From assembly GCA_014750165.1 (NCBI GenBank), contig GCA_014750165.1_4319.1: 45,917 nucleotides of DNA; one strand, given 5' to 3'. The DNA is from a phage. This document shows positions 2,341 through 41,168 of the stretch, piece by piece. The number at the start of each line of letters is the position of its first letter. Position 1 is the first letter of the stretch. Position numbers and translations under genes: made by a program. Below the pieces are notes generated by a model, which saw nothing but the letters and a program-made list of their open reading frames with translations, ran no database searches and was not told where the DNA came from.

Positions 2341-2359
2341 ATAGCACTTTTTGCTAAAG
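2341..2359 (+). promoter_or_regulatory. gene-boundary palindrome cassette, variant copy (ATAGCACTTTTTGCTAAAG)
   Basis: TAGCA-N5-TGCTA palindrome, then GTTAA..TTAAC hairpin around TATAGT, then CATCGAAACGA and RBS before small ORF 2418. Confidence 0.5.
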
Positions 2360-2417
2360 CGTTAATCCAGTCTTCCTGTATAGTTAACTCATCGAAACGA
2401 AATGAGAGACTAAAGAA

Positions 2418-2543
2418 ATGAAAGCAATCATCACAATTATGGCAGTGGCAGCGGCAACAACCCTTTCAATTACTTATGTTAAGTTTTGCATGTCAGTAGC
2501 TGAGAGCTACTCAATCTGGCAATTTGCAACTCATTGGCACTAA
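2418..2543 (+). CDS. small hydrophobic peptide (41 aa), hypothetical
   Basis: ATG 7 nt after GAGAGA; MKAIITIMAVAAATTLSITYVKFCMSVAESYSIWQFATHWH; below track size cutoff; own cassette upstream; approx coords. Confidence 0.3.
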   Translation: MKAIITIMAVAAATTLSITYVKFCMSVAESYSIWQFATHWH

Positions 2544-2586
2544 GTGTTAGAATACTGATTCACAAACAATAAGAGGATTAACTAAG

Positions 2587-2901
2587 ATGGCAAAATTCAA
2601 ACTTTCACTAGCAGCGCTTCCTGACTTTAAGCTGCCTGTAAAATTCAAGCTGGCTAACGACCAGGATGTAGAGGTTATCTTTACAGTCAAGCACAAGAAA
2701 ACCTCAGAGCTTCAGGAGTTACTTAATAAAGAAGGCCTAAGCACCAAAGAACTCATTATGGCAATTGCATCTGATTGGGATTTGGAGGAGGAATACAACG
2801 AAGACAACGTTAATGAGTTCTCAGACCTGTTCCCGTCTTCAACCGTTGCTCTTACCACTGCTTACATGCAGGCGCTCGCTGGTCAGAGAGTAAAAAACTA
2901 A
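2587..2901 (+). CDS. tail assembly chaperone (lambda G-like)
   Basis: 104 aa ORF immediately upstream of tape measure gene; ends at slippery heptamer. Confidence 0.6.
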   Translation: MAKFKLSLAALPDFKLPVKFKLANDQDVEVIFTVKHKKTSELQELLNKEGLSTKELIMAIASDWDLEEEYNEDNVNEFSDLFPSSTVALTTAYMQALAGQRVKN

Positions 2902-3221
2902 AACGAGCGGTGTATCTACAGTACCAGTCAGAGCCAACAGATGCCGAACTGGAAGCTATTGGGATGCGCCGCTCCGATTACGAAGATGAAGAGCCTGAAG
3001 TTTTACACTTCGACGAAAACATGATGAAGGCGTGGGACATTTACTGTTCAATGGCTACGCAATGGCGAGTCGGAGCTAACGGAGCTACAGGCCTAGATTA
3101 CAACGTGCTAAATTTCCTCTTTAGAGTGTATAATGTTTCTGAAGAAGAATTGGTACTCAGCGATTTACGCATCCTTGAAGCTAAGGCTCTTGAGATGATG
3201 GATAACCTGAGAAAAAAATAA
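2587..3221 (+). CDS. tail assembly chaperone G-T fusion by programmed -1 frameshift
   Basis: Second ORF (track 2910..3221) is in -1 frame relative to 2587..2901 and has no independent ATG; slippery site A AAA AAC at 2892..2898 immediately before the frame-0 stop. Confidence 0.55.
2892..2898 (+). promoter_or_regulatory. -1 ribosomal frameshift slippery heptamer A AAA AAC
   Basis: X XXY YYZ heptamer in frame with upstream ORF, followed by TAA; -1 reading continues into 2910..3221 frame. Confidence 0.55.
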
Positions 3222-3256
3222 CCCGCTTCGGCGGGTTTTCTATTATGGAGGCTTAG

Positions 3257-39013: not shown

Positions 39014-39022
39014 TGGTATAAT
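39014..39022 (+). promoter_or_regulatory. extended -10 promoter element TGGTATAAT upstream of packaging genes
   Basis: TGnTATAAT match ~25 nt upstream of terS start. Confidence 0.45.
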
Positions 39023-39046
39023 CTGACCTCAACAAAGGGGGATTAA

Positions 39047-39553
39047 ATGAGCAAAGCAGCATTAAAGATGGGTGAGGGAAACTTCAAGGCGCTCTACAAC
39101 AAGAAGTATGGCGACATTGCCATGGTGGCAATCAACCGCAAGTACACGCCAGAAGAGGTTTTAGATTTCGCCGTTCGATATTTCTCCTGGGCGGAGAGTG
39201 AGGCAATCAAAGCAATTGAGACAGCAGCATTTCAGGGCGTGGTTAGCGAGAGCTTAGTGCACAAGCCGAGAGTGTTCACATTAACCGGGCTGGCGCTATT
39301 TATGGGTGTTAACATCAATAGATTCGCTCGCTGGCGCACTGAAGCTGGATACTCCGATGTGATGGAATTCATTGATAACGTAATCTACGAGCAGAAATAT
39401 CAGCTTGGCGTTGCAGGTATTATCAACTCTACCATCGTTGGTAAAGAGCTTGGAATTGATAAGCCTCAGGAAATCACCATTAGCAACAACTCTACAGCTA
39501 ACGACGTTGATAGCATGAAGGAAGCTCTGGAATCTGTGATTAGCAAGTTATAA
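39047..39553 (+). CDS. terS: terminase small subunit (putative)
   Basis: 168 aa ORF immediately upstream of large terminase, strong RBS AAGGGGGA. Confidence 0.6.
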   Translation: MSKAALKMGEGNFKALYNKKYGDIAMVAINRKYTPEEVLDFAVRYFSWAESEAIKAIETAAFQGVVSESLVHKPRVFTLTGLALFMGVNINRFARWRTEAGYSDVMEFIDNVIYEQKYQLGVAGIINSTIVGKELGIDKPQEITISNNSTANDVDSMKEALESVISKL

Positions 39554-39571
39554 CAATAAGAGGGTATAACA

Positions 39572-41143
39572 ATGAGTGATTTAATCGTGTGGGATGAACT
39601 TACATACGCAGAAAAGATGGCTATCAAGGCCATCTCTGAGCATAGTTTCGAGGGGTTCTTGCGGTGTTTCTTCCAGATAACGCAGGGTGAGAGATTTAAA
39701 ATGAATTGGCACGCGAAGTACCTTTGCCGCGTCATAGATGAGATTCTTGATGGTAAGAGAAAGGACACCATCATAAACATAGCTCCGGGATCTGCCAAAA
39801 CCGAACTGTTTAGCATCCACTTCCCTGTATATAGCATGATTAAGATTAAGAAGGTTAGAAATCTTAGTTTGTCTTTCTCTGATTCATTGGTGAAGCGCAA
39901 CTCAAAGCGTGTTCGTGACCTGATAAAGTCAAAGGAGTTCCAGGAGCTTTGGCCCTGCAAGTTTGGAACATGCAGGGATGACGAAATTCAAGTGCTGGAT
40001 GAGAATGGTAAAGTTAGGTTTGAGTCTATATCTAAGGCGATGGCGGGGCAGGTGACGGGAAGCAGGGGAGGCTACATGACTGACGATTATAGTGGTTGCA
40101 TAATGCTGGATGACCCACTAAAACCTGATGACGCGCTAAGTAATGTAAGAAGAGAGGCTGTCAACATGCTTCTCAAGAACACAATTCGTTCACGTCGAGC
40201 TAGCTCAGTAAAGGGAAAGGAAACGCCAATACTTGCCGTGCAGCAAAGACTTCATGTCCTGGACACTAGCCACTTCATGGAGTCAGGGCAGATGGGCATC
40301 AAGTTCGACGTAGTGAAAGTTCCAGCCATAGTCACGGAGGATTACGCCGACACGCTCCCTGATTGGATTAAGCAGCAATTTATTGATGATGTTCTTTCGT
40401 CACCATTTGTTGAGAGGGATGGGGTTAAGTATTACAGCTACTTCCCAGCAAAGGAATCAATAGAAGACTTGATGGCAATGCGGGATGCTGACCCTTATAC
40501 ATTCCTAAGTCAGTACGCTCAAGAACCAGTAGCACTTGGCGGCAATCTGATTAACGTGGATTGGTTCCAGCGCCTTAGCGATACATTCAGACCTCCCGCT
40601 AAGTATGATTATCGATTCATCACATGCGATACTGCGATGACCACAAAGAGTTATAGTGACTTCTCTGTACTTCAGTTGTGGGGATATAAGGATGCTAAGA
40701 TTTACCTGATAGACCAGCGCAGAGGTAAATTTGAAGCACCAGAGTTGGAGGCTGAACTACTGGACTTCGAGAAGAAATCAAGGGCAACCAGTCAGTCAGA
40801 TGGCATCCTCCGAAAGATCATCATCGAGAAGAAAGCGTCTGGTATCGGCCTGATTCAATCAGCTGGCAGGGTTATGCGAACACCGATAGAGTCATACGTA
40901 CCGGATAATGACAAGCTAACCAGGGTGATGAGTGCACTACCACAGATTAAGGCTGGTAACGTAGTTCTTCCAGAGTCATCGCCGTGGCTAAACGGATTGC
41001 TCACTGAGGTTGCGGCTTTTACGGCAGATGACTCGCATAAGCACGACGACCAAATTGACTGTCTAACAATGGCGGTAAACCTTGTACTTAACATCGCGGA
41101 TGATCCTAAGGCGAGACTAATGCGCATAGCAGGAATTAAATAG
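39572..41143 (+). CDS. terL: terminase large subunit
   Basis: 523 aa; N-terminal ATPase with deviant Walker A (IAPGSAKT) and C-terminal nuclease-like acidic motifs; position before portal. Confidence 0.9.
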   Translation: MSDLIVWDELTYAEKMAIKAISEHSFEGFLRCFFQITQGERFKMNWHAKYLCRVIDEILDGKRKDTIINIAPGSAKTELFSIHFPVYSMIKIKKVRNLSLSFSDSLVKRNSKRVRDLIKSKEFQELWPCKFGTCRDDEIQVLDENGKVRFESISKAMAGQVTGSRGGYMTDDYSGCIMLDDPLKPDDALSNVRREAVNMLLKNTIRSRRASSVKGKETPILAVQQRLHVLDTSHFMESGQMGIKFDVVKVPAIVTEDYADTLPDWIKQQFIDDVLSSPFVERDGVKYYSYFPAKESIEDLMAMRDADPYTFLSQYAQEPVALGGNLINVDWFQRLSDTFRPPAKYDYRFITCDTAMTTKSYSDFSVLQLWGYKDAKIYLIDQRRGKFEAPELEAELLDFEKKSRATSQSDGILRKIIIEKKASGIGLIQSAGRVMRTPIESYVPDNDKLTRVMSALPQIKAGNVVLPESSPWLNGLLTEVAAFTADDSHKHDDQIDCLTMAVNLVLNIADDPKARLMRIAGIK

Positions 41144-41147
41144 CACG

Positions 41148-41168
41148 AATTGCTAAACTAAGTCGCCA
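41148..41168 (+). promoter_or_regulatory. gene-boundary palindrome cassette
   Basis: AAATAGCACGAATTGCTAAAC then CGCCA..TGGCG hairpin, TATAGT, CATCGAAACGA. Confidence 0.5.

Follow-up and report, generated by a model that had tools for sequence, protein, structure and literature searches.

A repeated gene-boundary cassette of T1-like phages with the layout of a class II Mar/Sox/Rob-box promoter

What is the function of a short sequence block that recurs at some 20 gene boundaries of a phage genome? The question is raised by a stretch of 45,917 nucleotides (nt) (contig GCA_014750165.1_4319.1 of assembly GCA_014750165.1; the whole stretch is here referred to as the window), in which the block, here called the box, heads a cassette made up of a hexamer, a leader, and a ribosome-binding site (RBS). 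Megablast placed the window closest to the T1-like coliphages BEK3, JeanPiccard, and Veterinaerplatzvirus, at ~88% identity, and it is essentially the whole 46-kb genome of a T1-like coliphage (Drexlerviridae, Braunvirinae). Judged by its sequence, the box is a near-perfect consensus Mar/Sox/Rob box (marbox), and the cassettes are very probably promoters.

The repeat itself has been published, a point that the original prediction for this DNA missed, as it missed the marbox identity. In the 2024 re-annotation of phage TLS, a 21-nt intergenic direct repeat, aaATAGCACnnnTTGnTAAAA, was described ~76 nt 5' of start codons; the TLS repeats point the way that transcription proceeds and form A, T, and G subgroups, and similar repeats were noted in T1, Rtp, and Rogue1 (PMC11447400). 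The authors found just three sigma70-like intergenic promoters in TLS, listed the function of the repeat among four open questions on T1-like phages, and offered stoperators, enhancer sites, and UP elements as guesses (PMC11447400). The repeats of these phages are the same element as the box of the window cassettes. The TLS paper has no fixed -10, leader, hairpins, or marbox identity, all of which are described here (PMC11447400), and in the literature searched no paper was found that links T1-like phages or Drexlerviridae to the marbox or SoxS.

A gene map made by tblastn with the JeanPiccard proteins contains the complete Drexlerviridae set, with tail, recombination, primase/helicase, and lysis genes, many small open reading frames (ORFs), and the genes from terminase to capsid. 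No RNA polymerase gene was found in this map, and TLS likewise lacks a phage RNA polymerase gene according to its authors (PMC11447400). No repressor or integrase gene was identified in the map, and T1-like phages of this group are annotated as virulent.

Sequence and promoter geometry of the cassette

The 18-mer ATAGCACGAATTGCTAAA has 15 matches in the window at up to 3 mismatches, where 0.07 would be expected, and relaxing the cutoff to 5 mismatches yields ~21 cassette-like sites, including the variant ATAGCACTTTTTG(C/T)TAAA. This agrees with the ~20 copies originally predicted. A TATAAT-like hexamer stands exactly 22 nt 3' of TTGCTA in 17 to 18 of the 21 copies, so that the fixed spacing noted earlier was confirmed, and the described order of the parts that follow proved accurate: the leader CATCGAAACGA begins 5 to 6 nt past the hexamer (exact in 6 copies, with no more than 2 mismatches in ~12), and an ACGAGG-type RBS and a start codon come after it. 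Of the 21 sites, 20 point the same way as an ORF whose start is located 10 to 63 nt past the predicted transcription start site, and in most cases the upstream stop codon directly adjoins the box (TAA-ATAGCAC). The box comes in GAA, TTT, and TAA/AAA subgroups. Across 459 cassettes, G-14 is conserved in 84%, C-1 in 78%, and A+1 in 88%, and the leader consensus C-1 A T C g A A A C g A is kept across subfamilies.

Two forms of the marbox consensus have been published, AYnGCACnnWnnRYYAAAY (PMC3709825) and gcannwwntgnnaaa (PMC12052159). The phage box agrees with the former at all specified positions except the last Y and with the latter at all of them, and the 15-mer of the latter form has 15 exact matches in the window versus 0.58 expected. 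A position weight matrix was built from 87 Salmonella chromatin immunoprecipitation sequencing (ChIP-seq) sites of the regulators MarA, SoxS, Rob, and RamA; its top-scoring sequence, GCACTAATTGCTAAA, occurs among the phage variants. Ranked among the real sites, the GAA, TTT, and AAA variants fall in the 97th to 100th percentile and the TTTTTGTT form in the 85th, and 13 sites in the window score at or above the ChIP 90th percentile versus 0.07 in shuffles. Applied to the upstream regions of E. coli sodA and inaA, the same matrix gave no clear box.

The original prediction described the block as a palindrome, but the conservation is asymmetric. At 47 sites from three genomes, G-47 is present in 47/47, while the mirror position -37 is C in 27/47 and a pyrimidine in 42/47, as expected for a marbox; mirror partners are missing for C-44 and A-34/A-33. 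Such asymmetric conservation fits a monomer site of MarA, SoxS, or Rob. GCA and TGC are intrinsic to the optimal marbox, and of the arms TAGCA/TGCTA, A-48 alone exceeds the consensus; the palindrome is therefore largely a by-product.

The position of the box relative to the hexamer points in the same direction. Class II marbox promoters have a box in forward orientation that overlaps the -35 region and is centered between -36 and -55 (approximately -41 at micF) (PMC12052159), and they lack a recognizable -35 element (PMC10268841). The cassettes show every one of these features, provided that the hexamer is the -10 element, which the position numbering used here assumes; positions -35 to -30 read AAAnnn, with no recognizable -35 hexamer. 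At E. coli micF (NC_000913.3, annotated 5' end), the box stops 18 bp short of the -10 TAGAAT, and the distance from the G of GCAC to the hexamer is 35 nt both there and in the phage cassettes. Likewise, the gap between the 15-mer and the -10 is 20 nt in the cassettes, in micF, and in nfo (TATCAT). In 1.23 Mb of T1-like DNA, boxes were located by means of the ChIP matrix only; a TAnnnT hexamer was found exactly 20 nt 3' of the box in 355 of the 605 unique boxes, versus 30 and 17 at 19 and 21 nt. The cassettes thus share with micF and nfo the same asymmetric 20-bp forward box, -35 overlap, center near -41, and 18-bp gap to a sigma70 -10 with no -35 hexamer. They differ from host marbox promoters in lying in a virulent phage genome at ~20 per 46 kb, in having near-optimal rather than degenerate boxes, and in the fusion of the box to a conserved leader, an RBS, and an embedded hairpin.

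Other promoter types were considered. TTGCTA was rejected as a -35 element: it stands 22 nt away from the hexamer, and there is no -10 at 17 nt downstream. The statement in the original prediction that a 22-nt gap does not suit a sigma70 -35/-10 pair therefore stands, no -35 being present at 16 to 18 nt, and the activator-dependent promoter that it listed among its options is the best reading, based on the box, the geometry, and the missing -35. Canonical sigma70 promoters are not enriched in the window (32 found versus 43 expected), and we found no literature on transcription start sites of T1-like phages. Sigma54 promoters have GG at -24 and GC at -12 (TGGCACG-N4-TTGCW). The phage motif, TAGCACG-N3-TGCT, has AG in place of GG, and its TTGC is 2 nt too close, and a sigma54 promoter was rejected. 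In T4 middle promoters, a MotA box is centered at approximately -30, 11 to 13 bp from the -10, and acts together with sigma appropriation by AsiA. Like the cassettes, these promoters combine a good -10 and no -35 with a TTGCT-containing upstream box that is read by an activator; however, the cassette box lies ~10 bp further upstream than the MotA box. No MotA or AsiA domain was found in the 30 ORFs scanned.

The motif search across related phages that had been proposed at the outset was carried out on six Drexlerviridae genomes with Escherichia, Klebsiella, and Enterobacter hosts. A box followed after 20 nt by TAnnnT is found at 13 sites each in the window and in an Enterobacter phage, at 12 in JeanPiccard, at 10 in a Klebsiella Webervirus, at 9 in a Veterinaerplatzvirus, and at 8 in a Hanrivervirus, with ~0 expected in each. 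The exact 18-mer was found in at least 120 IMG/VR stretches, all on contigs of 39 to 53 kb. Pseudomonas phage Motto was dropped as a negative control, as it has 82 to 88% nucleotide identity to enteric T1-like phages.

Hairpins and the mosaic context of the cassettes

The copy-specific inverted repeats reported in the original prediction are statistically real. For spacer plus hexamer, compared with spacer shuffles, summed z-scores of the minimum free energy (MFE) range from -3.2 to -7.0 in five genomes. Over 459 unique cassettes, the mean MFE is -12.0 kcal/mol versus -6.1 for spacer shuffles, and it is -8.0 kcal/mol after the downstream halves have been swapped between cassettes, which indicates a match between each spacer and the downstream part of the same cassette. 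Hairpins are present in ~90% of these cassettes and fall into two positional classes: in 151 cassettes the stem-loop lies within the spacer and ends at -12, and in 261 the stem encloses the -10, with the discriminator, often including the leader CATC, as its 3' arm. Compensatory change, which had also been claimed, receives modest support: orthologous hairpins show 31 double changes versus 7 to 19 in slid controls, but also 139 broken pairs. Strict covariation is weak because orthologous cassettes often carry wholly different spacers. In many class B hairpins of the IMG/VR-derived cassettes, a spacer GATCG(G)GG pairs with the leader CC(C)CATCG, which places a GATC (Dam) site in many cassette spacers; an adenine methyltransferase is annotated in JeanPiccard, and these phages can carry one.

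As the 5' arms are located upstream of the predicted start, the hairpin would not form in the cassette's own transcript and would act only through read-through RNA or through DNA. Of the RNA signal suggested originally, the part that concerns the cassette's own transcript is thus not upheld, while the hairpins may be a signal in read-through RNA. A hairpin promoter, also suggested originally, is unlikely, and a promoter of the N4 type was rejected, given a gene map without an RNA polymerase gene and hairpins in two positional classes. In the PeSL elements of the T4-type phages RB49 and phi1, stem-loops that overlie the -10, or occupy the interval separating it from the -35, act as terminators, one of them as well as rrnB T1 (PMC2839356). 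PeSLs resemble the cassettes in being conserved stop-codon-to-ATG units of ~80 to 100 bp with a promoter, a GC-rich stem-loop, and a Shine-Dalgarno sequence. PeSLs are associated with ORFans and indel boundaries, and the cassettes may be too. PeSLs differ in possessing a genuine -35 together with an upstream region rich in AT and in working without an activator, and their terminator activity and mini-circle formation were shown by experiment. By analogy, the cassette hairpin may serve as an attenuator or insulator, and the whole cassette is probably a PeSL-like expression unit with a class II Mar/Sox/Rob-box promoter.

When the window was compared with JeanPiccard, 12 of 30 indel edges were found within 30 nt of a cassette, zones that make up 6.4% of the genome. 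With a cassette at ~28% of gene boundaries, though, the enrichment is weak under a gene-boundary null. Three replaced segments have cassettes at both ends (14811-15596, 25372-25579, and 27933-29608); the whole of the first, which contains a Rha-like gene and is flanked by two cassettes, is absent from JeanPiccard. Cassettes also precede two HNH genes. Two moron-like insertions in the structural block, at 2341-2543 and 41140-41641, are likewise missing from JeanPiccard, and each stands behind a cassette, with inserted genes at 2418-2543 and 41214-41603, the latter having its own terminator at 41625-41641.

Host activators and rival explanations

No homologue of MarA, SoxS, or Rob was detected among 746 ORFs by hidden Markov model and phmmer searches (best E value, 0.2), and no AraC domain was found in 30 ORFs scanned with Pfam. 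For a phage without an AraC-type protein, host Rob, MarA, or SoxS would be the likely activators, and we consider it reasonably probable that these host proteins activate the cassettes. We propose that the core of the cassette is a class II activator-dependent sigma70 promoter in which the marbox replaces the -35. The 20-bp box, aATAGCAC-nnn-TTG-Y-TAAA, would lie at approximately -50 to -31 in forward orientation with its center near -41, and be followed 18 bp past its end by a good -10 (TATAGT, TATTAT, or CATAAT) in which the G at -14 is conserved. The predicted start of transcription is the A of CATCG, ~7 nt past the hexamer, and the transcript would open with an A/C-rich leader of 20 to 35 nt ending in the ACGAGG-type RBS. 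A monomer of constitutive Rob or of stress-induced MarA or SoxS would bind the box and recruit RNA polymerase as at micF, and in Klebsiella and Enterobacter RamA would be a further candidate. The hairpins would act on read-through RNA, as attenuators, terminators, or insulators, or on DNA.

Several observations weigh against this proposal. In a Keio screen of the T1-like phage LL5, which is >90% identical to TLS, eight required genes were identified and none was rob, marA, or soxS; the supplement of that paper has no entries for these genes either. MarA, SoxS, and Rob are reported to be mutually substitutable (PMC11642870). The absence of rob, marA, and soxS from the LL5 list could reflect redundancy, adequate basal activity, or host factors that are not the activator, and it lowers our confidence in the host-factor model. 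MarA and SoxS are normally scarce. Rob, in turn, is largely sequestered in unstressed cells (PMC10268841), and reliance on such proteins would be an odd dependency for a fast lytic phage. Conservation of A-48 and T-40 goes beyond the marbox consensus, and the arm centers of TAGCA-N5-TGCTA are 10 bp apart, which would suit a dimeric helix-turn-helix (HTH) protein too. G-14 together with a near-consensus -10 could permit initiation without any activator. Most hairpins lack a U-tract, and a terminator scan for a hairpin plus a T-run picks out just 3 of the cassette hairpins in the window. Finally, a Cro-like regulator gene is present in 6/6 genomes examined (63 to 96% identity) and is widespread in the family.

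This regulator, encoded at 22308-22781 on the minus strand (157 amino acids [aa]; Pfam matches to Cro/YdaS-type single-HTH proteins), leads to the rival that we regard as unlikely yet the strongest of those considered, namely, that it or an unrecognized phage protein is the activator. A dimer would occupy TAGCA-N5-TGCTA near -42, the cassettes would form a delayed-early class, and the likeness to the marbox would be coincidence or mimicry. Such an activator would account for the negative Keio result; the 5-bp arms are one helical turn apart, the regulator gene has a sigma70-like promoter (TTGTCT-17-TACAAT), and there is a weak box at 22794 in its own control region. Yet the conservation is asymmetric, G-47 has no fixed mirror partner, and the subfamilies share a near-invariant box yet differ in the predicted recognition helix (TPQAVEEWFK, SQQTVNQWRV, SIQVVQQWRK, and SHQTIQQWRK). 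A chance match to a marbox consensus of ~21 bits combined with the micF geometry is also very unlikely, and a better operator candidate exists in a TTGCA-N5-TGCAA cluster at 34787-34848, conserved solely in the subfamily that shares the helix of the window. A different role for the boxes, as negative or sequestering elements (stoperator-like roadblocks, operators, or decoys for host MarA, SoxS, and Rob), we judge very improbable. The stoperators and start-associated sequences of mycobacteriophages belong to temperate phages, in which they serve as repressor sites or translation-linked motifs. They share with the cassettes a short asymmetric motif that recurs at gene boundaries in many oriented copies; unlike the cassettes, they have no fixed phase to a -10. 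The TLS authors raised the stoperator idea (PMC11447400), the 13 top-percentile sites of each genome, multiplied as the DNA replicates, would titrate regulators that are scarce, and one orphan box, at 21262, overlies a tail-fiber promoter in a way suited to repression. However, the fixed 20-nt phase to the -10, the fixed orientation, and the missing -35 are promoter traits that a roadblock or decoy would not need, and these phages are annotated as virulent with no repressor gene identified.

The chances are smallest for the block being a UP-type enhancer, contacted by the alpha subunit of RNA polymerase with no specific activator. This was suggested in the TLS paper (PMC11447400), and the block, being upstream of the core promoter, is roughly where such an element belongs. 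UP elements, however, are A/T-rich tracts at approximately -40 to -60, while the invariant positions here are G and C (GCAC and G-38), and the block, which extends as far as -31, covers the -35 position. It is also improbable, though less so, that the main role lies in RNA or recombination, i.e., that the cassettes are mRNA processing or stabilizing signals, or homology linkers for module shuffling, with secondary promoter-like features. The frequency of the hairpins, the pairing of the leader with GATCG-type spacer sequence, the indel edges close to cassettes, the three segments bounded by cassettes on both sides, and the PeSL precedent (PMC2839356) speak for such a role. It would leave the invariant box and its phase to the -10 unexplained, most of the indel enrichment is gone under the gene-boundary null, and the cassette matches no Rfam family in a scan of the window. 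Roles of this kind are compatible with a Mar/Sox/Rob-box promoter rather than exclusive of it.

The marbox-promoter reading would supply the missing promoters of T1-like phages, for which three sigma70-like promoters are known in TLS, and gives a testable answer to the open question on their repeats. There is, in our estimate, an even chance that Drexlerviridae have wired most of their non-structural transcription (~10 to 20 promoters per genome) to host MarA, SoxS, and Rob, and possibly RamA, through optimal marboxes. If so, a lytic phage family would depend chiefly on one family of host activators for the specificity of its promoters, and phage development would be tied to the mar/sox/rob resistance circuit, with a bearing on phage-antibiotic combinations and on mar-constitutive clinical strains. 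Phage expression would report the exposure of the host to bile salts, salicylate, oxidants, and antibiotics, and replicating phage DNA could titrate the regulators away from efflux and porin control. The boxes would also represent a natural high-affinity target set for Rob, an abundant protein of unclear role, and the cassettes would be compact, near-optimal MarA/SoxS/Rob-responsive promoter parts.

Individual cassettes and neighboring features

The first cassette (2341-2420, plus strand) is a TTT variant with its box at 2341-2360, the -10 TATAGT at 2379-2384, and a predicted +1 at 2391 (CATCGAAACGA); past the major tail gene, it precedes the start, at 2418, of a 41-aa ORF in a segment unmatched in JeanPiccard. 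A weak cassette at 7413-7485 (plus strand; ATAGCACTTTTTGTTAAG, -10 TATCCT) stands before an HNH homing endonuclease gene with its start at 7483. The next three are on the minus strand. At 13976-14062, the TAA variant, which is the optimum of the ChIP matrix, has its box at 14062-14043, the -10 TACTAT at 14024-14019, and a predicted +1 at ~14012, ahead of a gene of a phage lipoprotein family with its start at 13978. The cassette at 14733-14809 (box at 14809-14790, predicted +1 at ~14759), in which the -10 TATAAT lies within the loop of GTGCGG/CCGCAC, precedes a Dcm-like methyltransferase gene. Homology of this minus-strand gene starts at 14735, the usual 24 nt past the predicted +1, where the codon is ATA, and the first ATG is at 14696; the ATA may be a non-canonical start or point to a truncated gene or a sequence error. 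A GAT variant without a conserved leader or RBS, at 15505-15567, precedes the Rha-like gene (start at 15507), in which an in-frame ATG is found ~10 nt past the predicted start site, so that the mRNA would be nearly leaderless. On the plus strand, the cassette at 17413-17488 stands before an Erf-like recombination gene, and its GGGAT(ga)/(tt)ATCCC repeat encloses the -10 TATAGT at 17451-17456.

The orphan box is part of a plus-strand site at 21262-21307 that has no gene downstream, points into the 3' end of the primase gene, and is conserved in JeanPiccard. The box (21262-21279) is located just downstream of a minus-strand extended -10, TGcTACAAT (21293-21285), which lies right after the primase terminator and before the ATG of the lateral tail-fiber gene (21238), and it overlaps the predicted start region of that promoter; a factor bound there could repress it. 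The minus-strand cassette at 22247-22331, before the primase gene (start at 22249), has a degenerate box (GCAGCACGAAAAGCTAAA) that falls in the regulator gene's 3' end and a terminator-like hairpin with CATAAT in its loop. At 22794-22885 (plus strand), a weak cassette (ATAGCATTTTTTGTTAAA, -10 TAGTAT, 21-nt gap) precedes a helicase gene (22883).

The following five cassettes are on the plus strand. Those at 25290-25373 (-10 TATAGT at 25328-25333, before a 68-aa ORF) and 25581-25663 (hairpin GTGGTG/CACCAC with TATTAT as its loop) contain the exact 18-mer. Those at 27920-28005 and 28482-28558 are TTT variants: in the former, before an HNH gene, ATACCCGC-gaaa-GCGGGTAT with a T-run is an intrinsic terminator by score and overlaps the -10 TATTAT, and in the latter, before a PNKP-phosphatase-like gene, ATGCCG/CGGCAT overlaps CATAAT. 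The exact 18-mer occurs again at 29570-29657, before a DUF7244 gene 5' of the lysis genes. Three minus-strand cassettes come next: an AAA variant with a GATAAT end at 32964-33040, before a 527-aa helicase gene, in which GCGGtC/GgCCGC encloses TATAAT; one at 33583-33655, whose hairpin ATCGCA-agga-TGCGGT is flagged as terminator-like; and a TTT variant with a 23-nt gap at 34694-34767, at the head of a leftward block of small genes.

Upstream of this last, leftward cassette, in a 550-bp divergent region, lie the three palindromes of the cluster at 34787-34848, TTGCAtatatTGCAA, TTGCAcatatGGCAA, and TTGCTtcagaTGCAA, a candidate operator set for the Cro-like regulator. The cluster is kept in JeanPiccard (L001 40621-40682) and Veterinaerplatzvirus (L009 363-424) and not in other subfamilies. 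In an alignment of the regulator, the best-conserved parts are an N-terminal basic segment, DKRTxNGNNGTxRGxDKKxRKRP, and a C-terminal FCRPDLxFDxNGKP, not the HTH.

The remaining cassettes are on the plus strand. A TAA variant at 36199-36274 has a terminator-like spacer, CCCGCTCCGGCAGGTTTTGT; in the exact 18-mer cassette at 36832-36908, GGGGTAA/TTACCCC encloses TATAGT; and the cassette at 37967-38043 (ATAGCAAGAA...) has the -10 TACAAT and the leader CATCAACACAACGA. The last, at 41140-41216, again with the exact 18-mer and with the hairpin CGCCA-cgga-TGGCG, precedes the inserted ORF of 129 to 143 aa between the terminase and portal genes. The only Rfam match in the window, a tRNA-Arg (anticodon TCT) at 38659-38736, lies 5' of the terminase genes, and the same arrangement is found in JeanPiccard.

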